Positions 3,926 to 33,510 of a DNA stretch of 64,000 nucleotides are shown here, piece after piece. The first letter of the stretch is position 1, and each line of letters begins with the position of its first letter. Source of the DNA: Nakamurella sp. (GTDB lineage Bacteria > Actinomycetota > Actinomycetes > Mycobacteriales > Nakamurellaceae); contig JAFIHI010000091.1 in assembly GCA_017848755.1 (NCBI GenBank), positions 350 through 64,349 of the forward strand, in the 5' to 3' direction. A program made the translations under genes and the position numbers. The notes under the pieces were generated by a model. That model was not told the origin of the DNA and did not search any database. It saw nothing but the letters and a program-made list of their open reading frames with translations.

Positions 3926-3935
3926 TGTGGATAAC
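3926..3935. promoter_or_regulatory. TGTGGATAAC box (contains a perfect DnaA-box TTATCCACA) upstream of tadA
   Basis: Exact sequence in the hisN-tadA intergenic region; identical copies at 11011 and 33501. Confidence 0.55.
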
Positions 3936-4003
3936 CCGGACGAGTCGGGCGCGAATGCGTTAGCGTCTGCTAACCCGTCCGGAGCAGACCATGGGAGCCG
4001 ACG

Positions 4004-5227
4004 TTGCCGACCGCGACCCAGCACATCCATGACGAGGTTCGCGAGCTGGTGCGCCGGCGCGGCCTCGACCCGCTCAAGGATCCGCGCGGCACGCGCCTGC
4101 TGATCGACGAGGTCATCGGCCACTACGAGGAACGGGTGGCGACCTCGGCGCTGCCGCCGCTGCTCGACCGGGGCGACGCCGCGCGGTACGTGTTCGACCA
4201 GGTCGCAGGCTTCGGCCAACTGCAGCAATTCCTGGACGATCCCGGCGTCGAGGAGCTGTGGGTGAACGAGCCCGGGCGGGTCTTCGTGGCCCGCGGCGGG
4301 CGATCCGAGCTCACCACGGTGGTGCTGGGCGCCGATGAGATCCGTGATCTGGTTGAGCGAATGCTCAAACCGTCCGGGCGCCGCCTCGACCTGTCCAGCC
4401 CCTTCGTCGACGCCTTGCTTCCGGACGGTTCGCGGCTGCACGCGGTGATTCCCGACATCACTCGCGAACACCTATCGCTGAACGTGCGGAAGTTCGTGGT
4501 CGCGGCGAATTCGCTCGACGATCTCGTCGCCCGCGCGACGCTCCCCGCCCGCGCCGCACGCTTCCTGGAGGCGTCCGTCGCAGCCGGCCTGAACATCATC
4601 GTCTCGGGCGGCACGCAGGCGGGGAAAACCACCATGCTCGGCACGCTGGTGAACTCCATCCCGCCGCAGGAACGGGTGGTCACCTGCGAGGAAGTCTTCG
4701 AGCTGCGGCCGAACCTTCCCGACGTGGTCGCGATGCAGACGCGGCAGCCGAACCTGGAGGGGCACGGTGAGATCCGGCTGCGCCGGCTGGTGAAAGAAGC
4801 GCTGCGCATGCGGCCGTCGCGGATCATCGTGGGCGAGGTCCGGCAGGAGGAATCGCTCGACCTGCTGATTGCGTTGAACAGCGGGCTACCAGGGATGTGC
4901 TCGGTACACGCGAACTCCGCGCGCGAGGCCGTCACCAAGCTGTGCACGCTGCCGCTGCTGGCCGGGGAGAACGTGACGGCGCAGTTCGTCGTGCCGACCG
5001 TCGCGGCGTCGGTGGACCTGATCGTGCAGATGGGCCTGGAGGCCGACGGAACACGGCGCGTCCGCGAGATCGTGGCCGTTCCCGGACGGGTAGAGGGCGG
5101 CGTCGTGGAAACGGCCGACATCTTCACCACCAGCGACGGCGCGCTACTTCGGGCGGAAGGATTCCCGCCGCACGCCGACCGGTTCGCCCGCTGCGGGCAC
5201 CATTTGCCGGACCTGCTGAGCACGTAA
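4004..5227 (+). CDS. tadA: Tad pilus assembly ATPase CpaF/TadA
   Basis: [12 protein letters not shown], Walker [41 protein letters not shown]. Confidence 0.93.
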
Positions 5228-5410
5228 TGCCGCCGATCACTCCGGCTCGCGATCATCAGCGACAACACCGTTCTGCCCCCTACGCCTCGATTTCCGCGCT
5301 TTGCAAGGTCTTGCGCGAACATTGATTCACCCGTTTGTGCGGCAGAGCGGTGTTATCCCCGGAGGGCGTTAGCGCGTCATATACGTAGGGAAAGTAGCGA
5401 ACGGGGCGGG

Positions 5411-5974
5411 GTGGGATGCGTGGAGGGTGTTGTCAGCGAGCAGCGTGTATCGGCGAGAGCTTATGAGCCTGACGTGAGCGATGCCCGCGCCGCCGCGCAG
5501 GAGTTGTTCGCGTCCTCATATGTCAGCCTGGTGCGGCTCGCGGCGGCGACGCTGCGGGACCGGTCGTGGGCAGAAGATGTCGTGCAAGAGTCATTCGCCC
5601 ACGTACAGACGAAGCTCAATCAGCTGCGTGATCCGGACAGCGCACTTGCATACATGCGCAAGTCGGTGCTCAACCGCGCACGGTCCGAGTTGCGTCGCCA
5701 CCACAGCAGGTCGACTGGCGCGGTCGGCGACGGGCAAACGGGGGCCGTACTCGACGCCGAACATGAGGCGATGGCACGGCTTCGGCATTCCGAGCTGCTC
5801 GACCTGATCCACACTCTGCCGAAGCGGCAACGCGACATCGTTCTGCTTCGGTTCGTGCACCAACTCTCGCTCGACGAAGCCGCTTCGACACTGCGGATCA
5901 CAGTCGGCGCCGTCAAGGCATCCCAACATCGTGCGCTGGCGAAGCTCAAGCAACGCTTGGAAGGGCACATCTAA
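5411..5974 (+). CDS. ECF RNA polymerase sigma factor (SigE-like family)
   Basis: AEDVVQESF, AYMRKSVLNRARSELRR, LPKRQRDIVLLRF, GAVKASQHRALAKL. Start uncertain. Confidence 0.88.
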   Translation: MGCVEGVVSEQRVSARAYEPDVSDARAAAQELFASSYVSLVRLAAATLRDRSWAEDVVQESFAHVQTKLNQLRDPDSALAYMRKSVLNRARSELRRHHSRSTGAVGDGQTGAVLDAEHEAMARLRHSELLDLIHTLPKRQRDIVLLRFVHQLSLDEAASTLRITVGAVKASQHRALAKLKQRLEGHI

Positions 5975-6744
5975 TGGACGAATTCGAACGACGCGTCAGA
6001 GACGCGCTGAATGCCGACCTGCAATGCATCAATGCGCACACCGTTCGCAGGAGGTCGCTTCCGACAGCAGCATCGACGCCCCACCACCATCGCATCATGC
6101 CTATGGTCGCAACGGTTGCTGCCGTGGCCGTGGTGGCACTGGTCATGGGGATAATCGGCACACACAGTGCTGGCCGAGACATCTATGCGGCCGGCGGCGG
6201 TACGACGGCTCCATCCCCGTCCATTCGCCCAGGTCTCATCGAGGTGCAAGGCGCGGCGATATCGATTCCAGGCGGATGGCATGCCGAAGACGTCAGTAGT
6301 GTCGATGTCGACATCACAAATGCGTTCGGATACTGCCTGCTGCGAACCAACCACGAGATCCTTCCCACAGGATGCCTCGCCAGCGAGGGCATTTTAATCC
6401 GCTTGGCTCGGGTCAGGTCCGGTCAAGCGGTGGTCCCAGTGCAGGGCAGTTTCCAGTCAGACTGCACAGGCGCACCAACAGTGCCGACCCTGCACCAGCG
6501 GCCAGGCTCAATCGGCAACGAGCCTGCCACGATGGTCACCATCACTTGTGGAGACGACATCGGCGCAAGTAGTACCTACTGGGCCGTCTCCGACAGAACC
6601 GTCACCGTCCAATCGCCCTTCGATGGCGAACGAAGCCTCCCGATAGCCACATACGTCGCCGAGCACATCGAGTTGACGCAATGGAGCCATGTAATTCAGC
6701 CGCCAACGCCCGGCCGAACCCTATCGCCCACAACGGCAGGGTAA
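5974..6744 (+). CDS. Putative single-pass membrane anti-sigma partner
   Basis: TAATG overlap with the sigma gene. Short cytoplasmic N-terminus (DEFERRVRDAL), TM helix VATVAAVAVVALVMGIIG, Cys-containing extracellular part. Confidence 0.6.
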   Translation: MDEFERRVRDALNADLQCINAHTVRRRSLPTAASTPHHHRIMPMVATVAAVAVVALVMGIIGTHSAGRDIYAAGGGTTAPSPSIRPGLIEVQGAAISIPGGWHAEDVSSVDVDITNAFGYCLLRTNHEILPTGCLASEGILIRLARVRSGQAVVPVQGSFQSDCTGAPTVPTLHQRPGSIGNEPATMVTITCGDDIGASSTYWAVSDRTVTVQSPFDGERSLPIATYVAEHIELTQWSHVIQPPTPGRTLSPTTAG

Positions 6745-6904
6745 TCACGCTGCATACCCGCAAGTGCGCGCCGACGTGTCGATCCATGGCGACGGCACTC
6801 GCGACACCGTCCTACACCAACAATGTGGACCTGTGTCGCGAACTTCCGTCAGCGAAACCAGCTATAACGGAACTCAAAACCATTCTCCAGAAAGGAGCTA
6901 CTCT

Positions 6905-7465
6905 ATGAAGAAGCTGCTAGGTATCGTCGCTGCGACGCTGCTGGGCATTGCGATGTTCGCATTGCCGGCCAGTGCCGCACCGGAAACTGCCTTCTGCGTT
7001 CTTCCTAACGGTGGCCAAATGAGCTGCTATAGCACGCAGGCCGAGATGCTCAGGGTCGCATCAGGAGGCCGAATAAATCTTTCTGACAAGGCGACGGCGT
7101 TAGAAGTCGACGCTGCGATCGAACGATCCAATGCCGCAGCCAGCAAGCTCGCCGCTCCAACAGCTACAGTGATCCAAGCGAATCTGTGGACCGGTCAATC
7201 TAAGACTGGAAACCAGCTGACCTTGACCGCATCGGCACTGTGTACGAACGGTGGCGCTGGACCCTGGACATATTTTAATACTCCGTGGGCGAATAACATC
7301 GAATCGACCCAACTATACGCTGGCTGCTACGGCAGGGGCTACCACGACCCGAACCTTTCACCGCTAGGAGCATCGTACGGTTTCGGCTATGAAGTCTACG
7401 CCTCAACGCTTGGCGGCTTCAACAACCAGATGAACTCATTCAAGTCCTGCGCGGCGAGCTGTTAA
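6905..7465 (+). CDS. Secreted Cys-rich protein, possibly beta/gamma-crystallin-like
   Basis: RBS AAAGGAG; signal peptide MKKLLGIVAATLLGIAMFALPASA; six Cys; WANNIES and FNNQMNSF segments resemble crystallin-like repeats (inference). Confidence 0.7.
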   Translation: MKKLLGIVAATLLGIAMFALPASAAPETAFCVLPNGGQMSCYSTQAEMLRVASGGRINLSDKATALEVDAAIERSNAAASKLAAPTATVIQANLWTGQSKTGNQLTLTASALCTNGGAGPWTYFNTPWANNIESTQLYAGCYGRGYHDPNLSPLGASYGFGYEVYASTLGGFNNQMNSFKSCAASC

Positions 7466-7522
7466 TCGCCAATATGGGTTGACCACCGGATGACTGATCG
7501 ATCCCTCGGGCAACTGTTCTGT

Positions 7523-7567
7523 CGTGGTGCGGCCAGAGTAGCGAATAATCACTCTGGCCGCGCCGCG
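7523..7567 (+). terminator. Hairpin, probable terminator
   Basis: GCGGCCAGAGT (7529-7539) pairs with ACTCTGGCCGC (7551-7561) and can be extended with G-U pairs; ~60 nt after the secreted-protein stop. Confidence 0.55.
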
Positions 7568-7802
7568 GCAGGTATTTATCGGCGTGCAGGAGGATCAACC
7601 AGATGCGCCATCATGGCCTAGAGCCGATGTGCTAAATCATTCCCTCATGATTCGAACAACTCGGAGCGAGCCGGAACAGCCTCGAGGTAAACCGTTCTTA
7701 GCAAAGGCCCGTCCTTGAACTCTATGACCTCGTCAGCGCGCGATCGATGGCCTTGATCAGACACTAGTACCAACGGCCGAGAATATTAGGTGGAAATATT
7801 AG

Positions 7803-9023
7803 GTGAGCCTTCGCGAATTCACTCGGCCCCCGACTACCCATCACGGCAAGTCACGCGAGTCAACTCGTCTCGATGACAGTTGCTCAGACTGTCATCAGGC
7901 TGATATCTTGCCCAGAGCGGTCGCCCCGACCGTGTTTCTCGCGGGGCAAATAATCACATTAGGAATGCTCGCGTGGCTCAGCCAAGCCCGCGGCTACTCG
8001 CTGCTCAGTCGGTTAACAACGTGGGATGCTCAGCACTTTCTCAGCATCGCCATCGACGGCTACACATGGTCGACGCACGCAGGTACCGCCACGTCTCCGG
8101 CGTTCCTCCCCGGCTACCCGTCGCTGATCGCCGGACTGCATGCGGTGACCGGCCTGTGGCCCCCGGCTGCGGCCATCCTCGTGTCTGTCACCTGTGGCGT
8201 GATCTTTGCTTGTGCAATACCCCACATCGTCCGTGCCATTCCAGGCACGGACGGGCGTGCGGAGCTGGTCACGGTTGCGCTGGTCGCCGTTTCGCCGATG
8301 AGTGTCGTTCTGACCATGGCCTACAGCGAAGCGCTCTTTTGCGCGCTGGCCAGCTGGGCCCTGGTGTTCGCACTCCGACATAGGTGGTGGACCGCCGGAA
8401 CAATTGGGTTTTTCGCCGGTACGGTGCGCATATCTGGCCTTGCTATCGCCTTCGCGTTTGCCGTGGTGGCGATCACCACCCTAATACGGGAGCGCCGTCA
8501 GCTGCGATCCACAGCAGTATGTGCGGCCATTCCTCAGATGGTGGCGGCGACCGTTGCCGCTAGCGGGACGATTGGATGGGTTCTGTACTCGGGGTTGCGA
8601 ATGGGGTCGCTGACGGGCTGGTTCGCCGCACAGAACAAGGGTTGGGGTAGCCATTTCGATTTCGGCGTAACTACCACCAAATTTGTCTATCGGATCGCGA
8701 CTACTAGGCCCAACGTGCTCGAGGTTACCACCGCAGTCATCCTGATTGCGGCCTGCGTCCTAGTGATTGGCACAATCCGGCAAGGACAACCTATACTGTT
8801 GCTTGCTTACGGTGCTGCAGCAGTTGCCGAGGTAGTCGGAAGCGCAGGAATAATGAATTCTAAGATCCGGCTGCTCATTCCGGCCTTCACCATTCTGATG
8901 CCGACCGCCGCATGGCTCTCTCGACGTCAACAAGTCACACAAATCTTCACTCTGGCCACTTTCACCTTTGCATCGACCTGGCTCGGCGGATACGCATTAA
9001 CCATTTGGAAATACGCGATCTAG
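7803..9023 (+). CDS. Polytopic membrane mannosyltransferase (GT-C, PIG-V-like)
   Basis: TWDAQHFLSIAIDGY, AFLPGYPSL, MAYSEALFCALA, many TM helices. True start probably ~100 nt downstream. Confidence 0.75.
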   Translation: MSLREFTRPPTTHHGKSRESTRLDDSCSDCHQADILPRAVAPTVFLAGQIITLGMLAWLSQARGYSLLSRLTTWDAQHFLSIAIDGYTWSTHAGTATSPAFLPGYPSLIAGLHAVTGLWPPAAAILVSVTCGVIFACAIPHIVRAIPGTDGRAELVTVALVAVSPMSVVLTMAYSEALFCALASWALVFALRHRWWTAGTIGFFAGTVRISGLAIAFAFAVVAITTLIRERRQLRSTAVCAAIPQMVAATVAASGTIGWVLYSGLRMGSLTGWFAAQNKGWGSHFDFGVTTTKFVYRIATTRPNVLEVTTAVILIAACVLVIGTIRQGQPILLLAYGAAAVAEVVGSAGIMNSKIRLLIPAFTILMPTAAWLSRRQQVTQIFTLATFTFASTWLGGYALTIWKYAI

Positions 9024-9329
9024 AGCCACCGGCACTTGTGGATGAATGACGTGCTGTCCGTCAGTCGCGCAGTCCGCGCCGACGCCGTACTCACGGTGGT
9101 GGGGCATCAACGGCGTCCATCTCGCCGACACACCTGCAATGGTCCATTTCGGGGCAACCTCGGCGAACGCGAGCATCGTCGCTCCATTGCAGATGAGCGC
9201 AACTGTTACGTCACGACTGCTCAGGTGGAAACCTTTGGAGCAGTCGTGCGCAGCGCGCAGGCTCGCCGCGACTCCTTGGTCAAATCAACGATCAAAGCAC
9301 GTTGCCGATGGCCGGGCTGCTCGGCTGAG

Positions 9330-10793
9330 TTACTCGGCAGCGTTACTCGGTTGGGTGTGCGCGAGCGCCGCTTCCTTGATCCGGTAATGCCTGTTGCGTG
9401 CGCCCAAGATCGCGGCCGCCAGCGCGGCCGCGATCAGTGATCCGGCGGCGACACCGATCTGGACGTCGGCCGCACGCGCGGCATCGCCGCCGAACGCCAG
9501 ATGCCCGATGAGCAGCGACACCGTGAATCCCACCCCGCCCAACACTGCGAGCCCGGCGAGGTCGGGCCACGCCAGCCAGCGCAGCAACGGTGACCGGACG
9601 AGCCGGGCGGTGATGATGGTCGCGGCGAAGATACCGACGGCCTTGCCGACGACGAGTCCCGCGACAATGCCGACGGTGATGCGGTTCTCGAACGCCGAGC
9701 GAAGTCCGCCGAGTCCGCCGATCGTGACGCCGGCGGCGAAGAACGCGAACAGGGGCACCGCGAAGCCCGCGGATACCGGGCGAAGCGCCCGGTCGAGCCG
9801 GTCGGCGATCGCAGGCGCCTGCCGGCGCGGCGCGCCGCGAACAGCGTCATACCCGGCAGTGACCGGGCTGCTCCCGTCACCGCTATGCCCATCAGCGGGG
9901 TTCTTATCGGCCGCGCGCCCTCGGCTGGTGCGTCGGGGACTGCGCACCGGCACCGTGAACCCCATCAGCACTCCGGCGACGGTGGCGTGCACCCCGGACC
10001 CGTGCATCGCGGCCCAGGCGACAAGCGCGAGGAGTGGCAGCACAACCCACCCCGTCACCCCAACGCTGCGACCCCTGCGTCCGCGAATCTGCATCAGCGC
10101 TCCGAATGCTGCGATCGCGGCGAGCGCGAGGCCGAACAGCGCCAGGTCCACGTGGTCCGTGTAGAAGAGCGCGATGATGATGATGGCGAGCAGGTCGTCG
10201 ACGACGGCGAGGGTCAGCAGGAAGGTGCGCAGGGCCGACGGGAGGTGCCGCCCGACGACGGCGAGAACCGCGAGCGCGAAAGCGATGTCGGTGGCGGTCG
10301 GGATGGCCCAGCCGACGTGCGCGCCCTTCTCGCCGATCGTGACGACGATGTAGACGACGGCCGGCACCGCCATGCCGCCGACCGCCGCCGCCACCGGCAC
10401 CGCAGCGCGCCGGGCGTCGCGCAATTCGCCCACCACGAATTCCCGTTTGAGTTCCAGGCCCGCCAGGAAGAAGAAGAGCGACAGCAGACCGTCCGCAGTC
10501 CATGAGCCGATGGACAAGTGCAGGCCGAGCGACGCCGGCCCGATCCGCCAGTCGCGCGCTGCGGTGTAGGCGCCGGCGAGCGGCGAGTTCGCCATCATCA
10601 GCGCTACCACGGCGGCGATCACCAGCAGGGCGCCGCCGACAGTCTCGGTGCGCAGTAGCGCCGCGAGGTGCCGGCGTTCGCGGCGGCGTTCACGGCGTTC
10701 ACTGCGGGGGCGTGTGCGGTAGTGGCGGAGGGGCCGGAACTGCGACGCGCGCCCACGGGGCGTTCGCGCAGCGGCGTCGGTGGTGTGTGGCAC
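9330..10793 (-). CDS. nhaA: Na+/H+ antiporter NhaA
   Basis: ETVGGALL, ADGLLSLFFFLAGLELKRE, GWAIPTATDIAFAL, LAVVDDL, SGVHATVAGV, LGGVGFTVSL. Start approximate (GTG 10793). Confidence 0.93.
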   Translation of the reverse strand: MPHTTDAAARTPRGRASQFRPLRHYRTRPRSERRERRRERRHLAALLRTETVGGALLVIAAVVALMMANSPLAGAYTAARDWRIGPASLGLHLSIGSWTADGLLSLFFFLAGLELKREFVVGELRDARRAAVPVAAAVGGMAVPAVVYIVVTIGEKGAHVGWAIPTATDIAFALAVLAVVGRHLPSALRTFLLTLAVVDDLLAIIIIALFYTDHVDLALFGLALAAIAAFGALMQIRGRRGRSVGVTGWVVLPLLALVAWAAMHGSGVHATVAGVLMGFTVPVRSPRRTSRGRAADKNPADGHSGDGSSPVTAGYDAVRGAPRRQAPAIADRLDRALRPVSAGFAVPLFAFFAAGVTIGGLGGLRSAFENRITVGIVAGLVVGKAVGIFAATIITARLVRSPLLRWLAWPDLAGLAVLGGVGFTVSLLIGHLAFGGDAARAADVQIGVAAGSLIAAALAAAILGARNRHYRIKEAALAHTQPSNAAE

Positions 10794-10860
10794 AGGGCTC
10801 CGATCGCGGTACTGGCAGTAGGGGGCAAAACGCCGACCAGACTTCCCGGCACACCAGACG
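10794..10860 (-). promoter_or_regulatory. Candidate structured 5' leader of nhaA (possible riboswitch)
   Basis: A TACACT -10-like hexamer (10869-10864) is followed by GGTGTGCCGGGAAGTCTGGTCGGC, which can fold CCGG-GAAGU-CUGG inside GCCG/CGGC. Confidence 0.35.
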
Positions 10861-11010
10861 TTTAGTGTATGACGCTGTTCCCGACCGCAGTCGTCCGGAT
10901 GAGGTGCCACGGTGGCCAACCCAGGAACCTCGCGCTAGGAACGCCATACCCCGAATAGGGGCTGGCCGTCGCCGCAACGACGAGCGACTCGGTCCGAATG
11001 ACGGATTCCG

Positions 11011-11020
11011 TGTGGATAAC
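11011..11020. promoter_or_regulatory. TGTGGATAAC box upstream of tadB
   Basis: Exact copy, ~125 nt before the tadB start. Confidence 0.55.
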
Positions 11021-11146
11021 TTCCGTTCCGTATCGCATGTGAGCCACATCGCATTATGGTGCTTTTGCGCAGGTAGTCGTGCGGGCCGCGGTAAGGGCGC
11101 TGACAAGGGTGGTGCACGGCCACATCTCGAGTCGGGAGGCACAGCG

Positions 11147-12001
11147 TTGGGGGCAGTGGTGGGGTTGATCGGCGGCACCGGGCTGCTGCTGATCTGGCAG
11201 GGCCTGACCGGTGCGCCGCGACGCAGGAATGCGCCACACCGTGAGGTGCGTCTACGCGAGACGCTGGCCCAAGCCGGACTTTCGGGCGTCACACCGGCCC
11301 GCATGATCGCGCTGCAGGGCGCGGTCGCGCTGGTCGTCGTGGCGGTCTCGTTCGTCTCCACCGGCTCGGTGTCCATCTCGATCGTGTTCGCACTGTTCGC
11401 CGGATATTCGCCGTGGCTGCTTGTACAGCGGATGCGTCGTCGCCGCCGCGCGGATCTGCGGGAGCTGTGGCCGGAGGTGGTCGACAACCTGACGTCCGGT
11501 GTCCGCGCCGGCCTGTCGCTTCCGGAGGCACTCGCCGCGATCGGCCAACGCGGCCCGGAGCCGCTGCGCGAGCCGTTCCGGGCCTTCGGGCGGGACTACC
11601 GGGCCACCGGTGCGTTCGATGATTCGTTGACCCGTCTGAAGACGGCGCTGGCCGATCCCGTCGGCGACCGGATCTGCGAATCGCTGCGGGTGGCACGTGA
11701 GGTCGGTGGGACCGATCTCGGCCGACTGCTGAGCACGCTCAGCGGCTTCCTCCGGGAAGCTGCTCGGGTCCGCGCGGAGCTCCTTGCCCGACAATCGTGG
11801 GCGATCAGCGCGGCGCGCATGGCAGTGGCAGCACCGTGGCTGGTCCTGCTGCTCCTCTCCACCCGCCGAGAGACCCTCGCAGCCTACGACAGTGCCGTCG
11901 GCACAGCGATTCTCGCGATCGGAGCCGTGCTGACCGTGGCCGCCTACCGGGTGATGCTGCGCATCGGGCGCCTACCGGAGGATCGGCGAGTCCTCCGATG
12001 A
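11147..12001 (+). CDS. tadB: Tad pilus inner-membrane platform protein TadB
   Basis: GGGAGG RBS then TTG; LWPEVVDNLTSGVRAGLSLPEAL, ADPVGDRICESLRVAREVGG, AAPWLVLLLL. Confidence 0.88.
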   Translation: MGAVVGLIGGTGLLLIWQGLTGAPRRRNAPHREVRLRETLAQAGLSGVTPARMIALQGAVALVVVAVSFVSTGSVSISIVFALFAGYSPWLLVQRMRRRRRADLRELWPEVVDNLTSGVRAGLSLPEALAAIGQRGPEPLREPFRAFGRDYRATGAFDDSLTRLKTALADPVGDRICESLRVAREVGGTDLGRLLSTLSGFLREAARVRAELLARQSWAISAARMAVAAPWLVLLLLSTRRETLAAYDSAVGTAILAIGAVLTVAAYRVMLRIGRLPEDRRVLR

Positions 12002-12930
12002 CGACGTTCCTGGGCGGCACGATCGGCCTGGCCGCGGGCGCGGGCCTGCTGCTGGCGATCCTCGCCGCTCCCCCGTTTCGGAAGCTGTCACTGTCCGAGC
12101 GCATCGCACCGTACCTGCGGGATGCGGCCACCCCGTCGCGACTGCTGACCCCAAGCGGCACCGTGCGCGAGTCGACCATCGGTCGATTGACCGGGCCACT
12201 GCTGGCTGACGCTGTCCGCATGCTCGACCGGATCCTGGGCGGGCGGGCCTCGGTCCGCCGCCGCCTCGCGGCGCTGCGATCGCCGATGTCGGTGGAGCAA
12301 TTTCGCGCGGAGCAGGTGGTGTGGGCCGGGGTCGGCGGCGGTGTCGGCCTCGGTGTCGTGCTCCTCGCAATCATCAGCAACCACCGGAGCCCGATCCTGC
12401 TGGTGATGATCGTGCTGCTGTGCGCGGTCGCTGGCATCGTCGCGCGCGACTGGTGGCTGACACAGACGGTCTCCCGGCACAACGCCGAGATACTGGCCGA
12501 GTTCCCGGTGGTGGCCGAGATGCTCGCGCTCGCCGTCGCCGCGGGCGAGGGCTTGGCCGGCGCCATCGGACGGGTATGCCGCCTGACCCAGGGCCACCTG
12601 GCCGACGGCCTGCGAGCGATCCTCGCCGACGCGCGGGCGGGCGCATCGCTGCAGCAAGCGCTGCTGGTAGCGCGAGACAACACACAGGTCGAGCCGCTGG
12701 CGCGGTTCCTCGACGGCATGGCCGTCGCCCTGGAGCGCGGTACGCCATTGGCGGAGGTGCTGCACGCACAGGCGGCCGACGTCCGCGCCCTGAGCAAGCG
12801 GCAACTGCTGGAGGCCGGCGGAAAGAAGGAGATCCTCATGATGGTTCCTGTGGTATTCCTTGTGATGCCCGTCACTATCCTGTTCGCCTTCTTCCCCGGG
12901 ATCATCGCGATCACGACCGTGGCGCGATAG
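11998..12930 (+). CDS. tadC: Tad pilus platform protein TadC
   Basis: ATGA overlap with tadB; EFPVVAEMLALAVAAGEG, ERGTPLAEVLHAQAADVR, GGKKEILMMVPVVFL. Confidence 0.88.
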   Translation: MTTFLGGTIGLAAGAGLLLAILAAPPFRKLSLSERIAPYLRDAATPSRLLTPSGTVRESTIGRLTGPLLADAVRMLDRILGGRASVRRRLAALRSPMSVEQFRAEQVVWAGVGGGVGLGVVLLAIISNHRSPILLVMIVLLCAVAGIVARDWWLTQTVSRHNAEILAEFPVVAEMLALAVAAGEGLAGAIGRVCRLTQGHLADGLRAILADARAGASLQQALLVARDNTQVEPLARFLDGMAVALERGTPLAEVLHAQAADVRALSKRQLLEAGGKKEILMMVPVVFLVMPVTILFAFFPGIIAITTVAR

Positions 12931-13029
12931 GGATCCTGGCCATGGCCGAGCCGCCCGACCTCTATGAGTCCGAACCGCACGAGCCCGAACAACCTCCCGA
13001 AGCCCACAGAACCCACGAAGGAGCCTCCG

Positions 13030-13308
13030 ATGATCTCGCGCAGCGCAGCAAGGGCGTATTACGTGTTCGAGGCGACGGTCACGCTTCTCGTGACGTTGGC
13101 CGGGCCGGCGCGGCACCGCGATGCCCGCACGGGTCTAAGCAACCGCGAACCCACCGACCGGGACCGCGGCGACGTGCCGGGGTGGGTCATGGTCACGATG
13201 ATGACGGCGATCGTGGTCATCGTGCTGCTCGGCGTCTTCCAAGAGGCCGTTGTCAACGCGGTGAAGAACGCCTTCGATTCGATCAGCGGCCAGGGCGGCC
13301 AGCCGTAG
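13030..13308 (+). CDS. Flp-type major pilin
   Basis: AAGGAG RBS; actinobacterial pilin signature DRGDVPGWVMVTMMTAIVVIVLL. Confidence 0.75.
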   Translation: MISRSAARAYYVFEATVTLLVTLAGPARHRDARTGLSNREPTDRDRGDVPGWVMVTMMTAIVVIVLLGVFQEAVVNAVKNAFDSISGQGGQP

Positions 13309-13685
13309 CCGATCGCGGGTCGGCCGTCGCGGAATTCGCGATGGTGCTGGTGATGCTGATGCTGCTATTCCTGGCGATGGTCGGCGTCGGACTGTGGTTC
13401 TACACTCAGTCGCTGCTGACCAGCGCCGCAGCCCAAGCAGCGCGGTTGGCGGCTGGCGCCGATGTCCAGGACACCACCGCCGCCTCCCGGCGCGCCGCAG
13501 ACATCATGGCGCAGACGATCGCGGGCCGGCTCGCCGATACCGTCCGATGCGATCCTCCGCAGTCCGCGGATCCCGTCATGATCGAGGTGCGATGCACGAT
13601 GGCGGCGCCGGCGATCGTTCCGCTGCTGGACGGCATGATGCCGGACATCGACGTAACGGCCCACGCGCTGCGAGAGATTCCGTGA
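13305..13685 (+). CDS. tadE: TadE-like minor pilin (start codon unclear)
   Basis: DRGSAVAEFAMVLVMLMLLFL prepilin motif, AAAQAARLAA. No ATG/GTG/TTG immediately before the motif. Confidence 0.7.
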   Translation, partial: VADRGSAVAEFAMVLVMLMLLFLAMVGVGLWFYTQSLLTSAAAQAARLAAGADVQDTTAASRRAADIMAQTIAGRLADTVRCDPPQSADPVMIEVRCTMAAPAIVPLLDGMMPDIDVTAHALREIP

Positions 13686-14164
13686 CAAGAAAGGTCGCTC
13701 CCCCGCGCAATCCGAGCCATCGGCGCCTCGACGACGGCCGCGCCGTCATCGAGGTTGTCTTCCTCGCCGTCCTGCTGTTGATCCCGACCATGTACATCCT
13801 GATCGGTGTGTTGCGCCTGCAGGCCGCTACTCTCGCCGTCGCCCAGGCAGCGCGCGACGTCGGGCGGCTGATCGAGACGTCACCCGGTCTGCCGTCGCTC
13901 GATCAAGCGGCGGCAGTGGCGCGAGTGGCGCTGGCGGATCAGCGCGTGCCGGGCGATGGGATGCGCATCGCGACGATCGATGCCGGCGGGGACTGCGCCC
14001 GCGCCGGTTCGGCGCACTTCAGCCGGCAGGCCGGCACCGACTACGACGTGTGCGTGATCGCAGTCATCGACTTGCCCGGCGTGCCGACAGCCCTGGCCGG
14101 ATCCCGGAACACCGTCACCGGCGTGTATACGGTGCACATCGACGACCTGCGCGAGGGGCGCTAA
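13682..14164 (+). CDS. TadE/TadG-like minor pilin
   Basis: GTGA overlap; DDGRAVIEVVFLAVLLLIP, AQAARDVGR. Confidence 0.72.
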   Translation: MTRKVAPPRNPSHRRLDDGRAVIEVVFLAVLLLIPTMYILIGVLRLQAATLAVAQAARDVGRLIETSPGLPSLDQAAAVARVALADQRVPGDGMRIATIDAGGDCARAGSAHFSRQAGTDYDVCVIAVIDLPGVPTALAGSRNTVTGVYTVHIDDLREGR

Positions 14165-24555: not shown

Positions 24556-24572
24556 ATCGATCTGATGATCAC

Positions 24573-24620
24573 GCGGGCCGCGTCGCCGGGATTCCTCCGG
24601 TGCCGCGGCCCGCTGCTTTT
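24573..24620 (+). terminator. Intrinsic terminator after gdhA
   Basis: GCGGGCCGCG (24573-24582) pairs with CGCGGCCCGC (24604-24613), followed by TGCTTTT. Confidence 0.65.
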
Positions 24621-24770
24621 CGGGTATGACGCTCCCTGATATGACGCCGCTCTCGCCCACACCCCTCCGCAGATCCAAGCCGATCATGTTCATACCCGGT
24701 CGCGACGTTTGCGCCGCATAGGGCCAAGCGCGTGACGCCGTCAACTCAGGACAGCGACAGATTGTTAGCC

Positions 24771-25675: not shown

Positions 25676-26090
25676 CCACCAGCGGCTCCCCCGATTCCAC
25701 TCCGGATTGTCCAGTGAGCGGACCCGCCGGAAGCCATCTTGATTCGCCGCGCGGCGCGAATGCCACTTGCGCGAGTACTACCGAGGCAACTCGGCTGACG
25801 GTCCCTTCGTGCGCCAGGGGTTCCAGGCCGCGGTGGCGCCACAGGCGCTCGGCCGCAGTCCCCTGACGATCCTCGCCACGCTCCGACATCCGTTGCCACG
25901 TCACCGATATCGCGACACTCTGCCGCATCGCGGGCACCCGAAAAACTCTTTCGCTACCCACGCAACCACCGGGCGCATCGCGCGTCTGATCGGTGCGGTG
26001 ATCATGCCGCACCGGAGCCTCGCGCCCGCCGCGCGATCCCGGGTACCGCGCCGAACGGCCCGCGGCATCGCCGGGCGAGAGGGAGCCGAT

Positions 26091-27773: not shown

Positions 27774-27804
27774 CGGCCTAGGTTCGGCCGAGCCGGAATC
27801 GTGA

Positions 27805-28428
27805 CTATTCGGTAAGTGCCCGGCGCATCATGCCGATGAGCACGTGGACGGTTTCGCCGAGTTCGGCCTCAGTGAGGGGTTGTGTGATGAGCCAGGTGTC
27901 CATCGCCTGCCCCATGCCGAGGGCAACCGCGATCAGGAAGGCGGGTGGCAGGTCGGTGCGTATCGCCCCGAGCTGTTGTCCGACGACAACGGTCTGTACG
28001 AGCCATGGGAGTGCGGTTTGCTCGGCCTCGCGTTGTGCCTTGCGTAGGGCCGGGGATGCCGCACCGGTGAGCCAGTCCCGCAGGAGCGCAGCGGTCTGGG
28101 GTGTGGCGATGAGGAGCCGCATCAACCGTAGATAGTGCCCCTCGAGGATGCGCCAGAAGTCGTCGACGTCTGAGGCGTCTGGAACAGGGATCGGGCCATC
28201 CCGGAAGAGTCGTTCGACCTGTCTGCGGAGGACGTCTGCATAGAGGTCTTCCTTGCTGTCGAAGTAGTAATACATCGCTCCTTTGGAGATCCCGGCGGTG
28301 GCGATGATGCGGTTGATGGACGCGTCGGCGAACCCGTGGGCGGAGAACTCATCGAGTGCGGCGTCGAGGATAGCGTCGCGCTGTTCGGCTGATAGTTGCT
28401 GGAAGCGTGGGCGGGCCATGCAGACCAT
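27805..28428 (-). CDS. TetR/AcrR family regulator
   Basis: ILDAALDEFSAHGFADASINRIIATAGISKGAMYYYFDSKEDL. Confidence 0.92.
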   Translation of the reverse strand: MVCMARPRFQQLSAEQRDAILDAALDEFSAHGFADASINRIIATAGISKGAMYYYFDSKEDLYADVLRRQVERLFRDGPIPVPDASDVDDFWRILEGHYLRLMRLLIATPQTAALLRDWLTGAASPALRKAQREAEQTALPWLVQTVVVGQQLGAIRTDLPPAFLIAVALGMGQAMDTWLITQPLTEAELGETVHVLIGMMRRALTE

Positions 28429-29613
28429 TCAATCGGTCGCCGGTGGCGGGAGGTGGATCGGATCGCGCAGGCTTCGTCCGACCGCGAGGCGTGCGACGAT
28501 AGGAATCCCCATAAGCCCGATGACGGTGTTGCGAAGCAGCAGTTGCATGCGGTTTCGGGGAGCGAAGGCGGCGCCGAGCCCGATCGCTGCGTCCTGCTTC
28601 GCCCGCACGAGCTGCCCCAGCCGGCTCTGATACTGGTGGAAGGCGGTCGTGTAGTCGTTGCCGGCCTCGTGCAGCGCCGCTGCCAGAATGTATGCCTCGA
28701 CCATCGCCAGAGCGGATCCCTGTCCGGCGAGGAGAGACGGACAGGCAGCTGCGTCGCCGACGAGCGCGACGCGGCCCTGTGACCAGGTGGGCATCCGGAT
28801 CTGGCTCGCCCGGTCCATGTAGAACGTGCGTGCATGCGGAAGCTGGTCGAGGATGCGCGGAACCTCCCACCCGGCAGCGCGGAGCCGTTCGTGCAGTATC
28901 GCCTGTTGCGCGGCAACGTCGTCCGGTGGCAACTGGCCATCGTGGCGGAACATGAAGCAGAACATGGTGGAACCGTCCCGAAGGGCCAGCCGCAGCGCCT
29001 GCATGCCCACCTGGGTGCGGGTCACGGCGACGAGTTCGTCGCGTGGCTGGTAGCCATCCAGATTGAACGCAGCGACAGTGATGCCGAGGTAACGTTCGAA
29101 GTCCGCTTCGGGCCCGAACGCGAGAGACCGCACCCGTGAGTGCAAGCCGTCCGCGCCGATGACGAGGTCGAACTCGCGTGCAGCGCCGCTCGCGAACCTG
29201 ACAGCGGCGTGGTCCTCCGTCTCGGTGATCTCGTCGACTGTGTCACCGAAGATCGTCTCCACCTGGCCGTCGAGGGAGTCGTAGATCGCCCGGGCGAGAT
29301 CCGATCGGGCGATGCTGACGTAACGTCCGGCAGCGGCCCCGTCGATCACGCGCAGCGGGTTCAGGTGCGCGATCCGTTTTCCGCTGTTCGATACCTCCCG
29401 CATCTCACGCACGCGATAGCCGTCGGCGATGAGCCGTGGCACCAACCCCATCCGCTCTGCGACCTCGAAACCGGCACCCCAGAAGTCCACGAGGTAACCA
29501 CCCTCACGGAGCGCGGGTGCCCGCTCCACGAGCGTCGGCTCATGCCCGGACCGCAGCAGCCAGTACGCGAGCGTTGGACCGGCGATCCCCGCGCCGACGA
29601 TCAGAATCTTCAT
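28429..29613 (-). CDS. FAD-dependent monooxygenase/oxidoreductase
   Basis: ILIVGAGIAG, LVIGADGLHSRVR, ALVGDAAACPSLLAGQG. Confidence 0.9.
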   Translation of the reverse strand: MKILIVGAGIAGPTLAYWLLRSGHEPTLVERAPALREGGYLVDFWGAGFEVAERMGLVPRLIADGYRVREMREVSNSGKRIAHLNPLRVIDGAAAGRYVSIARSDLARAIYDSLDGQVETIFGDTVDEITETEDHAAVRFASGAAREFDLVIGADGLHSRVRSLAFGPEADFERYLGITVAAFNLDGYQPRDELVAVTRTQVGMQALRLALRDGSTMFCFMFRHDGQLPPDDVAAQQAILHERLRAAGWEVPRILDQLPHARTFYMDRASQIRMPTWSQGRVALVGDAAACPSLLAGQGSALAMVEAYILAAALHEAGNDYTTAFHQYQSRLGQLVRAKQDAAIGLGAAFAPRNRMQLLLRNTVIGLMGIPIVARLAVGRSLRDPIHLPPPATD

Positions 29614-29625
29614 ATCCGCCTTCTT

Positions 29626-29654
29626 TCAGACCATCGGTCGAACCATCGGTCTGA
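29626..29654. promoter_or_regulatory. Probable TetR operator
   Basis: TCAGACCATCGGTCGAACCATCGGTCTGA: tandem ACCATCGGTC units inside TCAGACC/GGTCTGA, just upstream of the monooxygenase-tetR operon. Confidence 0.6.
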
Positions 29655-29772
29655 TTCTATCGCTCCGCTCTCGTCAAGCGGTGGCGCGGACTCGCCACCC
29701 GCTACGACAGACTCGCGATCAACTGCCGCGCGGCCGGGCGGAGCACCCCGCACGCCCCTATGGCTGCGGCGG

Positions 29773-31122
29773 TCAGGATGACGTGGGGGCGGGAACGTCG
29801 TCATCTCCGTGCGCGGACCCAGCCGAATCGTGGCTCGGCAACTCACGCAGGCGCCACAGACGCACGCTCGCCACCGGCAGCACCGAGAGCAACCCCGCCG
29901 TCGCCGCAATCCACAACGTGGCCAGCACGCCGACGTGACTGCCCAGGACGCCGCCGACGAAGGCGCCGATGGGGATGGTGCCCCAGACGATGAAGCGCGC
30001 CGAGGCATTCATGCGGCCGAGCATGGTCGGCGGACACAGCCGCTGCCGGAAGCTCACCGTCGCGATGTTGTAGGCGACAACCATGGCCATGAAACCGATC
30101 TGGCCGACGATGAGCGTCGGCACCGCGGGCAGCACGGAGGCGAGCGGGAAGACGAACGGCATCGGTGCGAAGACCGCGGCGGTGACGATGATCGTCGCGC
30201 CCTCTCCGAGCCACCGGGTGATCGGCGTGACGATGAGCGCCCCGCAGAACCCGCCGACGGCGCCGACGGCTTCGATCAATCCGATGGTGACCGCCGACAG
30301 GTGCAATTCCCGCACCATGTACAGCATGGTGAGCGCATTCGCGGCGCTGCCGGTGAGGTTGCCGATGCCGGTGCAGGCGAGAAGGCGGCGCAGCAGCGGG
30401 TGGCGGAGCACGAAGGCCAGGCCCTCGGCGATCTCGATGCGCAGCGGACGGCGGGTCTCGCGCGCGGGCGGCGTCTCGCGGTACCGGATCCGCCAGAGCG
30501 CGGTGGCGGACGCCAGGTACCCGAGGCCGTTGACGGCGACCACGTCGGCGGCACCCAGGTACTTGATGGCGACGCCGCCGAGCGCTGGCCCTGCCGCTTG
30601 CGACACCGATTGGCTCGCTTGCAGTTTCGCGTTGCCTTCGACGACGTGGCGATGCCCGACGAGGAACGGCAGGTACGACTGGTAGGAGACGTCGAAGAAC
30701 ACCGTCAGCACCCCCACCGCCGTGGCCACGACGGCGAGCTGCGCGAAGGTGAGCCAGCCCAGCCACCACGCCGCGGTGATCGAGAGGAGCAGGATCGCGC
30801 GGCCGAGGTCCACCGAGAGCATCACGGTCCGCTTGCGCCACCGGTCGACCAGCGCGCCCGCCGGCAGGCCGATCAGCAGGAAGCCCAGACCCTGCAGGGT
30901 GCCGAGCAGTCCCATCTGGAAACTGGTCGCGGCGAGTACCGTGACGGCAAGGTATGGAAGGGCGATCCCGCCGAACGAGGCGCCGAGTTGGCTCGCCGTG
31001 TCGCCGATCCAGAGCCGTAGGAAGTCCTGGTGGTGCCAGAGCGGCCCGGCGCCGAGTTTGTGCAGTGCGCGGCGCAATACCCCTTGGGGAGCGGCCGGTT
31101 CGGGCTCGCTGGTCTGCGCCAT
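29773..31122 (-). CDS. MFS transporter (12 TM, H+ antiporter/MFS_3-like)
   Basis: DFLRLWIG, GALVDRWRKR, FFDVSYQSYLP, LGRMNASARF. Confidence 0.9.
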   Translation of the reverse strand: MAQTSEPEPAAPQGVLRRALHKLGAGPLWHHQDFLRLWIGDTASQLGASFGGIALPYLAVTVLAATSFQMGLLGTLQGLGFLLIGLPAGALVDRWRKRTVMLSVDLGRAILLLSITAAWWLGWLTFAQLAVVATAVGVLTVFFDVSYQSYLPFLVGHRHVVEGNAKLQASQSVSQAAGPALGGVAIKYLGAADVVAVNGLGYLASATALWRIRYRETPPARETRRPLRIEIAEGLAFVLRHPLLRRLLACTGIGNLTGSAANALTMLYMVRELHLSAVTIGLIEAVGAVGGFCGALIVTPITRWLGEGATIIVTAAVFAPMPFVFPLASVLPAVPTLIVGQIGFMAMVVAYNIATVSFRQRLCPPTMLGRMNASARFIVWGTIPIGAFVGGVLGSHVGVLATLWIAATAGLLSVLPVASVRLWRLRELPSHDSAGSAHGDDDVPAPTSS

Positions 31123-31134
31123 GGTGACGAGTGT

Positions 31135-31170
31135 GAAACAAGTGATTGGGAAATGTCAATCACTTGTTTC
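31135..31170. promoter_or_regulatory. Perfect 14-bp inverted repeat, probable operator
   Basis: GAAACAAGTGATTG-N8-CAATCACTTGTTTC between the divergent MFS and ArsR-type genes. Confidence 0.75.
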
Positions 31171-31190
31171 CGGGCGCAGCGCGGGCCGCT

Positions 31191-31796
31191 ATGGTGATCG
31201 ATATGTCAACGGCGGCACACGATCCCGGTCCCGATGCATTGCCCGGCGTGGGCACCGGCCTGGGGGCTGACACCGGCCTTGCCGCCGGCCCGGAGCGGCG
31301 ACCGGCGACCGACGCCGAGCGGCGAGCGCTGGCCAGCGTGGTGCGGCTGCGGATCCTGCGGATGTGCCTGTACGAGCCGCTCACCAACCGGCAGATCGCC
31401 GACCGGCTGGAGATGAACCCGGCGACCACGCTGCACCACGTGCGCACCCTCGTCGACCAGGGCTTCCTGGTCGCCGGCGATCCACGCCGCGGCCGACGCG
31501 GGTCTCGCGAGATCCCCTACCGAGCGACCGGCAAGTCCTGGACCCTAGAGATGGGCAACCCGCCCGAGGCGGCCGGCGTCGGTGCGCGCACCATGCTGCA
31601 GACATTCCTGGCCGAGGTCGCCGAGGTGCCCGCGTCCGCGGTCGACACCAGCCGGCTCGGCCTGCAGCTGTCGGCCGAGCATGAGGCGGAGTTGCGTTCG
31701 CGGCTGGCCGATCTGCTGGACGAGTTCGCCCGGCGATCGCACGACCCCGGCGGGCGGCGCTGGTCGATCTTCTTCGCCATCCACCCCGAGCCCTAG
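31191..31796 (+). CDS. ArsR-like winged-HTH regulator
   Basis: RALASVVRLRILRMC...LTNRQIADRLEMNPATTLHHVRTLVDQGFL...EIPYRATGKSW. Start 31191 or 31203. Confidence 0.85.
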   Translation: MVIDMSTAAHDPGPDALPGVGTGLGADTGLAAGPERRPATDAERRALASVVRLRILRMCLYEPLTNRQIADRLEMNPATTLHHVRTLVDQGFLVAGDPRRGRRGSREIPYRATGKSWTLEMGNPPEAAGVGARTMLQTFLAEVAEVPASAVDTSRLGLQLSAEHEAELRSRLADLLDEFARRSHDPGGRRWSIFFAIHPEP

Positions 31797-31902
31797 GGTG
31801 CCTTACCCTCCGGGGCCTACCGTCCGGTACGCGCACGGCACGGAAATTCGTCATATTCGAAACCTTGTCTGCCGCACTGACTATGACACACGTCGCGTGC
31901 GC

Positions 31903-32034
31903 AACGGCGTGCCCGACGATGTTCTCGCGCGGGTGGACGAGCGCGTCGAGATCCCCATGGTCGGCTGGGGTGCCAGCCTCAACGTCCCGGTGGCCGGCAG
32001 CCTCGTCGCCTACTGGCTCGCCAAGCTGTTGTGA
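31903..32034 (+). pseudogene. C-terminal fragment of a TrmH/SpoU RNA methyltransferase
   Basis: GVPDDVLARVDERVEIPMVGWGASLNVPVAGSLVAY matches the SpoU IPM.G...SLNV motif; no N-terminal part. Confidence 0.7.
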
Positions 32035-32302
32035 CGTCTCCACGCGGACGTCACAAAGCGCCACGGGTACGAGAAGCAGTGCCCACCACGGCTTGTGGCT
32101 CGCTTCTCGAGTATGACGATGTCCTCGTGCCCCGCCCATTCCTGACAGCCCGGGCACATGCTCCGGTCGCGGACGTATCATGCTGGACACGCTGGAGATC
32201 AGGGAAGGGAGGTGCGTGACCAGTGTCCGAAACCGAATGCGCGCCTCCCGGTACCGACTGACCGATGATGTCAGCGGGGGCGCCGACAGTGGAAGGTGCC
32301 CC

Positions 32303-32719
32303 ATGGCAGAGAGCAGTACCCCATCGCCCGGTCACGTGCCGGCCTCCGGCGACGCTACTTCTTCAGCGCCTTCGGATTCGCTGATCGCTCAGCTCCGTCG
32401 TGCGTTCGACGCGGTCGACACACTCGTCACGAACATTCGTCCCGACCAGTGGTCGATGCCGACGCCGTGCACGGACTGGACCGTGCGGCGGCTCGTGGAT
32501 CACCTGGTAGGCATGAACCTCGTGTTCACGGCACTGCTGGAAGACCAGCTGCCTCCACAGCGGCGCCAGTTCAGTGCCAACGCCGAAAACCGTGACAACG
32601 ACCGGGATGGTGATCGCCACGACGATCCGGTCGGCGCCTTTCGCACGTCGGCGGCGAACATCGTCATCGGCGATTCGGGGACCGAGCCAACACACGACCG
32701 CGGCCCGCTCCGCGGGTGA
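32303..32719 (+). pseudogene. Truncated TIGR03086 / MDMPI-like (DinB superfamily) protein
   Basis: PDQWSMPTPCTDWTVRRLVDHLV motif. Homology appears to end near RTSAA; 138 aa with no C-terminal metal-site region. Confidence 0.6.
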
Positions 32720-32758
32720 CATGTCGGAATGCCACAGTACGTGCGGCATCCGGCCCTA

Positions 32759-33430
32759 CTACGCTCGCACCGCCGCCCAGGCATCGCCGGCAACGATGAG
32801 GTGATCGAGGAAGCGCAGCCCGCAGTCGGCCGCCGCCGTGCGGAGCTCCGCGGTCACGGCGCGGTCGGCGTCGGTCGGCCGGGTCGTTCCGCCCGGATGC
32901 TGGTGGGCGACCGCGAAGGCTGCGCCGCTGGCCTCGACCACGCGTTGCAGGACGTCGGCGACGGGCACCACGGCGTGCCCTTCGCAGCTCTCGGCCACCG
33001 GGACAATCCTCATGAGCCGGAGCCGGCGATCGAGCACGATCACCAATACGGCGTGTTCGTCGCAGGCACGTAGCTCGGGCACGATGGCGGCCGCCAGCTC
33101 CGATCGCGCCGAGATTCGTGGCGTGTCGGCGGATTTGGTCGCGCGCCGGGCAAGTTCCGCGGCTGCTTGGATCCGGCAGGCGCCGACCGGCCCTACGCCG
33201 GGGAGCGCCGTCAGACCCGCGGCGGGGATCGCGAGCAGGCCGGCGGCACCGCCCGTTGCCCGCAGCACATCGGCAGCGACATCGATGACGTTCCGGCCGG
33301 CGCGGCCGGTTCCGAGCAGGACGGCGAGCAACTCCGCATCGGTGAGTAGGGCCGCGCCGAGGCGGAACAATCGCTCCCGCGGTCGCTGATCGGTGGGCAG
33401 GTCGGCCATGCGCGCACTGGGGGTCGTCAT
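32759..33430 (-). CDS. radC: RadC/JAB-domain protein
   Basis: RPRERL...LTDAELLAVLLGTG, LPGVG, HQHPGG..PTDAD, FLDHLIV. Confidence 0.88.
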   Translation of the reverse strand: MTTPSARMADLPTDQRPRERLFRLGAALLTDAELLAVLLGTGRAGRNVIDVAADVLRATGGAAGLLAIPAAGLTALPGVGPVGACRIQAAAELARRATKSADTPRISARSELAAAIVPELRACDEHAVLVIVLDRRLRLMRIVPVAESCEGHAVVPVADVLQRVVEASGAAFAVAHQHPGGTTRPTDADRAVTAELRTAAADCGLRFLDHLIVAGDAWAAVRA

Positions 33431-33500
33431 TCGGCCGACGCTAGGGCGTCATGCGGCCGCGGCCGGCTCCTAGGCAACAGGTGTGGATGGCCGACCGCGC

Positions 33501-33510
33501 TGTGGATAAC
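33501..33510. promoter_or_regulatory. TGTGGATAAC box upstream of radC
   Basis: Exact copy 70 nt upstream of radC; weaker TGTGGATGG at 33482. Confidence 0.55.

Follow-up and report, generated by a model that had tools for sequence, protein, structure and literature searches.

Introduction

Competence regulons of bacteria have been defined by shared cis-elements such as the ComX cin-box of Streptococcus pneumoniae, the CRP-S/Sxy sites of Haemophilus influenzae and the ComK boxes of Bacillus subtilis. DnaA boxes are known to work as operators outside the origin of replication (oriC), for example at dnaA, nrdAB and mioC in Escherichia coli, at sda, ywlC and yydA in B. subtilis and at gcrA, ftsZ and podJ in Caulobacter, and high-affinity DnaA boxes outside the origins titrate DnaA in E. 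coli and Streptomyces. To our knowledge, the Tad/Flp pili, ComEA/EC, ComF and DprA/ComM/SSB are not known DnaA targets in any organism. Here, we describe a 10-mer, TGTGGATAAC (read as GTTATCCACA on the − strand), that is repeated in a 64,000-nucleotide stretch (contig C241; hereafter the window) of the 3.85-Mb draft genome of Nakamurella (259 contigs, 68.7% GC), where it lies upstream of the Tad/Flp pilus genes tadA and tadB and of radC. The reading that we favour on balance is that this 10-mer is the consensus DnaA box (GTT[A/G]TCCACA, often followed by G) and may serve a conserved competence-type regulon of DNA-uptake and recombination genes in the class Actinomycetes as its common upstream operator.

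In Micrococcus luteus, transformation requires both the tad clusters, comEA/EC and an FtsK-like ATPase (PMC4322843, PMC8467076), and competence is induced by starvation and (p)ppGpp (PMC6667448). The competence control "cluster 13" of this bacterium comprises Mlut_14660 (HTH_17), Mlut_14650 (SAF-RcpC/CpaB) and Mlut_14640 (CpaE-like) (PMC8467076), and its competence regulon was stated to be unknown in January 2026 (PMC12849477). A literature search found no paper on the motif or the regulon described here, a search by the motif letters matched only primer sequences, and the promoter sequence is not printed in the M. luteus paper (PMC8467076). Like M. luteus, Nakamurella has a divergent HTH_17/SAF pair, two tad sets, comEA/EC and an FtsK-like ATPase. 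The M. luteus work differs in that genes were identified there (PMC8467076), whereas a motif and its targets are defined here, and the motif is argued to be independent of the HTH_17 orthologue.

The Nakamurella element resembles those of the ComX, CRP-S and ComK regulons in being one short sequence ahead of pilus genes, comEA/comEC, comF, dprA, ssb, recA and radC, which form the core set of those regulons too. It differs from them in that neither the sequence nor its likely reader is related to theirs and that the pilus is a Tad/Flp pilus; in addition, the regulon includes recN, dnaB, an FHA-FtsK-like ATPase gene, WXG100-like genes and many endonuclease-like genes. With the known DnaA-operator regulons, it shares the same word, asymmetric and often tandem sites upstream of promoters, and replication and repair genes (dnaB, recA and recN) as members. 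The differences from these regulons are that the targets include an uptake machine, that the boxes are conserved class-wide and that in Nakamurella they also lie inside a fully conserved 31-nt composite.

Results

Distribution of the 10-mer in the window and the genome

An exact search of the window found three copies of TGTGGATAAC, all on the + strand and all intergenic (Table 1), and no further copy on either strand. When the window was shuffled 100 times with its dinucleotides preserved, the mean was 0.02 copies and the maximum was 1. At all three sites, the 10-mer consists of a perfect TTATCCACA with a G before it. A preliminary description of this DNA had reported three intergenic copies upstream of tadA, the tadB block and radC, a chance expectation well below one and a DnaA box within the 10-mer; these points are confirmed, and the gene names are backed by Pfam.

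Genes of the whole genome were called by codon usage, which gave 87% of the genome as coding (a caller with a threshold on third-codon-position GC was dropped as too strict, at 73% coding). Their identities were assigned with Pfam and NCBIfam, those of comEC and dprA through family searches. By these calls, all the 11 exact copies of TGTGGATAAC in the genome are intergenic, and the reversed-word control has no copy in the genome. An order-3 Markov model of the intergenic DNA predicted 0.19 copies against 10 seen. The pattern TGTGGA[CT]AA occurs at 33 sites, 13 of the TTATCCACA form and 20 of the TTGTCCACA form, and 30 of these are intergenic as compared with 6 of 27 for reversed-word, composition-matched controls. 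Most of the intergenic copies (27 of 30) extend to ...AAC followed mostly by a pyrimidine, which none of the three coding copies does, and the actual motif is therefore about 11 nt long, GTT[A/G]TCCACA plus flanks. In total, the genome contains about 30 single or tandem boxes and 13 composite elements.

Genes located behind the boxes and composites

One element is common to the genes for DNA uptake: it stands as single boxes at tadA, tadB, comF and the SAF genes, and as composites at comEA-comEC, the Flp pilin and a second tad operon (tadZ-tadA2-tadB2-tadC2). The same element is found on DNA-processing genes, with composites at yraN-comM-dprA, an ssb paralogue and radC, and single boxes at recA and recN. 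The preliminary description had named comEA, comEC, dprA, comM, ssb and recA as the genes upstream of which the motif should be sought, and it is present ahead of them, as an exact box at recA and as composites at comEA-comEC, yraN-comM-dprA and the ssb paralogue.

Among the single boxes, the one at recA lies 202 nt upstream of the start, comF has two at its 5′ side, and the 5′ ends of tadA, tadB, recN, lipB, a DnaQ-like exonuclease gene and a DUF3039 gene each face a box. Two SAF/CpaB-like genes also face boxes, and so does a 77-amino-acid HTH_17 gene that is divergent from one of them. The dnaB gene (C150:3846-6485), which has an intein-like insert, is preceded by three box-like words clustered some 257 nt ahead of the start codon, and one box of the genome adjoins mtrAB-lpqB. 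Single boxes also face three HNH/DUF222, three Uma2 and two DUF559 endonuclease-like genes. With boxes and composites taken together, nine endonuclease-like genes were noted, namely HNH/DUF222 on contigs C119, C188 and C243, Uma2 on C30, C225 and C231, and DUF559 on C210, C225 and C252; these families were assigned by eye, and NCBIfam gave no match for the one Uma2 and the one DUF559 protein searched.

The composite, GGGTTGTCCCCCTGTCCGATTTCCATCCACAT, is a directional element of 31 nt with two box-like halves 20 nt apart. Scanning the genome with the pattern GTTRTCCMC-N11-13-[ACT]ATCCMCA gave 13 good intergenic composites, and all 13 are directed at the downstream gene. Besides the targets named above, composites are located ahead of a DUF4192 gene and two DUF559 genes; the one at the Flp-type pilin (DUF4244; C157:20069-20218, outside the window) precedes pseudopilin genes as well. 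The radC composite shares its architecture with the 12 others of the genome: its distal box is the TGTGGATAAC copy at site 3, and its proximal box, CCATCCACAC (33481-33490), is 51 nt upstream of the ATG. A composite was also observed on the gene of an FHA-FtsK/EccC-like ATPase of 1403 amino acids and on genes for WXG100-like small proteins (C45:3076-7287, C141:1951-2265 and C238:907-2829), which would be type VII-secretion-like members of the putative competence regulon.

Conservation of the element in relatives

Within the genus, the tadA orthologues are 76–86% identical. Alignment of 24 same-genus genomes showed TGTGGACA(A/G)C or its flipped form 70–130 nt upstream of tadA in nearly all, regardless of the upstream neighbour. 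In a wider set of 76 actinobacterial tadA loci (Nakamurella, Modestobacter, Geodermatophilus, Frankiaceae, Dermatophilaceae, Knoellia, Janibacter, Rothia and others), a box with at most one mismatch was found within 250 nt upstream in 53, against 0 of 76 for the reversed word and 0 of 76 for the control window, and the box density was 80 in 19 kb as compared with 11 in 76 kb of coding sequence. The tadB gene (284 amino acids) has an exact TGTGGATAAC 85–102 nt upstream in six other Nakamurella genomes (G014, G010, G019, G003, G007 and G023), and the orientation of its box switches between Nakamurella species.

Upstream of yraN-comM-dprA, 26 loci drawn from different families of the class gave 36 forward TCCACA in 26 windows of 200 nt, against 1 in 338 control windows. 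The usual layout at yraN is of two direct nnGTCCACAG boxes 17–29 nt apart, of which the proximal one lies about 45–50 nt upstream of a −10-like CATCGT and is therefore centred near −55. At comEA, forward boxes, mostly in tandem, stand at the 5′ limit of the open reading frame (ORF) in about all of the 27 class-level loci. The HTH_17 gene has upstream boxes in 23 of 27 loci, at 1.4 per window against 0.185 in controls, and these often form a facing pair in the spacer shared with the SAF gene. The boxes at tadA, comEA, yraN-comM-dprA and HTH_17/SAF are kept across about 50 genera. When the full Nakamurella composite matrix was used to probe relatives, it proved unsuitable, the 31-nt form being genus-specific and only the two box halves being kept class-wide.

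No orthologue of radC was found in 40 relatives (24 of them same-genus genomes) at E ≤ 0.001, so that among the 41 genomes searched only this one has the gene. Because it is absent from these relatives, radC is an accessory gene bearing the element, and it appears to have been recruited into the regulon as such. The conservation that the preliminary description had looked to for support thus extends across the class for tadA, comEA and yraN-comM-dprA and fails for radC.

Similarity of the boxes to those of replication origins

Letter for letter, the box word is the consensus DnaA box TT[A/G]TCCACA, in its TTATCCACA and TTGTCCACA forms; we take TTATCCACA after a G to be the R1/R4 box of E. coli and TTGTCCACA to be the actinobacterial box. 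The presumed oriC of this genome, in the dnaA-dnaN spacer (C98:10216-10835), contains seven imperfect box-like words, including GTTATCCCCAT, GTTGTCCCCAT, CCATCCACAC and GATATCCACA. These are the same words as the halves of the composite, and the TCCCCA variants GTTATCCCCAT and GTTGTCCCCAT are identical to its distal half. In 28 class-level origin spacers, 110 TCCACA boxes share flank preferences with the competence boxes (GTTGTCCACAG), with G at −4, T at −3 and −2, G/A at −1 and G at +6 (5′ GTTG, 3′ G), and the TCCCCA variant is common in both the sets. The boxes are asymmetric direct repeats whose spacing varies from 17 to 30 nt, as expected for DnaA.

Gene neighbourhoods in the window

The coordinates of the sites and their neighbours are given in Table 1. 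As parts of a Tad/Flp system, the window contains one PF00437, two PF00482 and one PF07811 match, and no pilin was recognised within it by Pfam. The genes from tadB to the last small ORF (11147..14164, + strand; limits from the codon-usage gene calls) are a pilus platform and pseudopilin operon apart from tadA. The two tad loci are unlinked throughout the genus, with an intervening block of 3–20 kb depending on the Nakamurella species. In the window, the block splitting tadA from tadBC (5228-9300) begins with an extracytoplasmic function (ECF) sigma factor gene (5474-5974) and includes a 58%-GC stretch (6001-8000), two ORFs without a Pfam match (5974-6744 and 6764-7465) and a PIG-V-like glycosyltransferase gene (7803-9023). 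The inositol-monophosphatase-family gene is probably not a conserved target of box 1, because the upstream neighbour of tadA varies by species while the box stays. The neighbours of tadB also vary among relatives, and nhaA is probably not a conserved target of box 2.

Table 1. Sites of the element and associated genes in the window and, where a contig is named, elsewhere in the genome.
Feature	Location	Strand	Evidence or remark
Inositol-monophosphatase-family gene	3086..3898	−	Pfam PF00459, 2.6e-48
Site 1 spacer, 105 nt			Between inositol-monophosphatase-family gene (−) and tadA (+)
Box 1, TGTGGATAAC	3926..3935	+	69 nt upstream of tadA start; 28 nt upstream of divergent inositol-monophosphatase-family gene
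tadA, Tad/Flp pilus ATPase (T2SSE)	4004..5227	+	Pfam PF00437, E 4.6e-35
nhaA, Na+/H+ antiporter	9330..10919	−	Pfam PF06965, 2e-118; divergent from box 2
Box 2, TGTGGATAAC	11011..11020	+	126 nt upstream of tadB start
tadB	11147..12001	+	Pfam T2SSF (PF00482)
tadC	11998..12930	+	Pfam T2SSF (PF00482)
Small ORF in tadB-tadC operon	12964..13308	+	Codon-usage gene calls
TadE-like pseudopilin	13341..13685	+	Pfam TadE (PF07811)
Further small ORF, end of tadB-tadC operon	13682..14164	+	Codon-usage gene calls
radC, UPF0758 N-terminal and RadC-like JAB domain	32759..33430	−	Pfam PF20582, 3.1e-21; PF04002, 6.1e-19
radC composite	33481..33512	−	Reads GAGTTATCCACAGCGCGGTCGGCCATCCACAC; position weight matrix score 27.3, only composite match in window
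Site 3, TGTGGATAAC	33501..33510	+	Between 3′ end of glucose/sorbosone dehydrogenase gene (33552-34688, −) and radC start
HTH_17 gene, orthologue of M. luteus Mlut_14660	C158:2298-2531		Divergent from SAF/CpaB-like gene C158:1427-2026
comEA-comEC composite	C229		GGGTTGTCCACCTGTCCGATTTCCATCCCCAC
yraN-comM-dprA composite	C198		GGGTTGTCCCCCTGTCCGAAATCCATCCACAT; comM = YifB family

A short repeat with the core GTATGACGNNGTTC, contained in the roughly 20-nt sequence CGAGTATGACGATGTTCTCG and followed by a variable GC-rich hairpin, was observed at 3888-3910 and 10866-10886 of the window. It has 316 copies in this genome, mostly intergenic, 51 in the nearest relative and 0–2 in 39 other relatives, with some found in the origin spacer of this genome and next to its comF boxes. 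The repeat resembles miniature inverted-repeat transposable elements (MITE) or repetitive extragenic palindromes (REP) and seems to have expanded recently. A link between this repeat, which lies near sites 1 and 2, and the box was rejected: the repeat is lineage-specific and therefore unrelated to the class-wide box.

Discussion

The distribution of the boxes indicates with high confidence that they are a shared functional operator, and the genes behind them suggest that the regulon probably serves DNA uptake and recombination. The proposal of the preliminary description, that the pilus genes and radC have a common regulator (DnaA or an unknown factor) as part of a cryptic transformation programme, is supported to this extent. 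Protein arrays on the boxes, about 55–85 bp upstream of the transcription start, would then control how strongly the DNA-uptake and recombination genes are expressed. For DnaA as the protein that binds the boxes directly, we consider the chances to be about even. DnaA would bind as one monomer per box, in head-to-tail arrays aimed at the promoter and centred about 55 and 75–85 bp upstream of the transcription start. Its binding would make expression of the DNA-uptake machinery depend on the replication-initiation and starvation state of the cell, and the small HTH_17 protein would be a regulon member and co-regulator and not the box reader. DnaA as the reader would also fit the induction of competence in M. 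luteus by starvation and (p)ppGpp (PMC6667448).

Several observations weigh against DnaA or against the regulon as drawn here. The perfect 9-mer is absent from the dnaA-dnaN spacer of this genome, though the regulon sites are perfect, and the proximal boxes at yraN often show C in place of T at the second box position. In the Nakamurella composite, all 31 nt are conserved, the spacer CCTGTCCGATTTCC among them; this exceeds the need of two DnaA boxes and points to another protein or to additional weak sites. Roughly half of the genes with boxes fall outside the known competence genes (HNH, Uma2 and DUF559 endonuclease-like genes, dnaB and lipB). The other classes of the phylum have DnaA and are mostly without boxes upstream of yraN; the element thus belongs to the class Actinomycetes, and the presence of DnaA alone fails to explain its distribution. 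Finally, M. luteus genetics point to the HTH_17 protein, as repression of the comEA/EC promoter is relieved by missense changes in Mlut_14660 (PMC8467076).

The last point leads to the possibility, which we hold to be rather unlikely, that the boxes are operators of this small, highly conserved HTH_17 (excisionase/BldC-like) protein. It would bind head-to-tail on the direct repeats as a repressor or an activator of the competence genes, and its sites would resemble DnaA boxes by coincidence or as a means of competing with DnaA. Nearly every M. luteus mutant with a derepressed comEA/EC promoter was hit in Mlut_14660 or its 5′ region and the gene could not be deleted, and the authors state that binding of Mlut_14660 to the promoter is still to be shown (PMC8467076). 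The orthologue is 56–68% identical across the class and single-copy in 47 of 61 genomes, and its own promoter region is among those that carry boxes in most loci. The comparison with the BldC family, small MerR/excisionase-like winged-HTH proteins whose members bind direct repeats directionally, head-to-tail and in variable numbers, is favourable as regards the directional direct repeats, their variable number, the small HTH_17-type protein within the regulon and the AT-rich tract of the composite, and the conserved 31 nt, AT-rich at their centre (GATTTCC), would accommodate three small monomers side by side. However, the BldC repeat is AATT-N4-C at a 9–10 bp period (PMC5859096), whereas the boxes are GTTGTCCACAG at variable distances that poorly suit contiguous head-to-tail multimers; repeats of the BldC type were rejected on this ground, only the composite centre GATTTCCAT resembling one such repeat. 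In addition, the replication origins are filled with the same box words and flanks, and 14 of the 61 genomes are without the orthologue (best paralogue 31–39% identity), of which 13 keep the yraN-comM-dprA boxes, and such genomes keep the comEA boxes too. The presence of boxes without the orthologue therefore argues against HTH_17 as the sole reader. Thus, DnaA, at about even chances, is favoured over the HTH_17 protein, because the boxes match the oriC boxes together with their flanks and persist in genomes that do not have an HTH_17 orthologue.

It is also unlikely, in our estimate, that the reader is another factor, such as a transcription factor that has escaped recognition, or a sigma factor or sigma adaptor specific to competence for which the composite would be a promoter element. 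The 13 composites without exception, and almost every comEA and yraN box, point downstream, which would suit a promoter element, and no canonical −35 was seen between the proximal box and CATCGT. The proximal box is however too far from this hexamer, at the distance given above, to be a −35 element, the spacings between boxes and from box to start codon are variable, and the single tadA and tadB boxes flip between species, with both orientations occurring (47 forward and 33 reverse). Known actinobacterial motifs do not fit either. The PafBC RecA-NDp consensus is TTGTCAGTG-N8-TAnnnT and the consensus of the LexA SOS box is TCGAAC-N4-GTTCGA; they share only TTGTC, or nothing, with the boxes and were rejected. 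A sigma-28/WhiG-like −10 (GCCGATAA compared with GTGGATAA, by eye) was dismissed, as there is no TAAA at −35 and the orientation is inconsistent. The MtrA operator, a direct repeat of c-G-T/A-n-A-C/T-c with a four-base separation (PMC6265350), does not match, since the boxes have an extra base (GTCCAC) and a longer, variable spacing. One cluster of M. luteus mutants also hit a sigma-70-family gene (PMC8467076), which would favour another factor as the reader. A purely replicative role, in which the boxes are DnaA-titration or replication-control sites (datA- or DARS-like) or tolerated high-affinity boxes with no part in transcription, is very improbable. The titration by boxes outside origins in other bacteria and the occurrence of 3 of the 11 exact copies within one 64-kb window are in line with it; yet the sites track tadA, tadB, comEA, yraN and HTH_17 through rearrangements in about 50 genera and keep their distance and orientation relative to the start of the gene, which titration does not need. 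That AT-rich words simply pile up in the intergenic DNA of a high-GC genome deserves next to no weight: this DNA is slightly less GC-rich than the genome (66.9% against 68.7%), but the count far exceeds the Markov expectation, the control words are mostly coding, and the controls in relatives gave 0 matches. The explanation by chance or composition is refuted.

The present analysis bears on the control of natural transformation in high-GC Gram-positive bacteria. It supplies a class-conserved cis-element with a list of target operons, which makes the regulon directly testable, and it predicts which Actinomycetes may be transformable, with relevance to the genetics of hard-to-manipulate genera and to the assessment of horizontal gene transfer within communities of soil and wastewater. 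Should DnaA be the reader, a replication initiator would for the first time be seen to govern a DNA-uptake regulon directly. More tentatively, and with somewhat less than even confidence, DnaA may act as master switch of natural competence throughout the class Actinomycetes, with the com-box being a high-affinity DnaA box. The expression of the Tad/Flp pilus, ComEA/EC, ComF, ComM-DprA, SSB, RecA and RecN would then be wired to the replication-initiation state, through a signal such as free DnaA-ATP in starvation and (p)ppGpp signalling, and the essential HTH_17 protein would have a modulating part at these sites, and perhaps at oriC as well.

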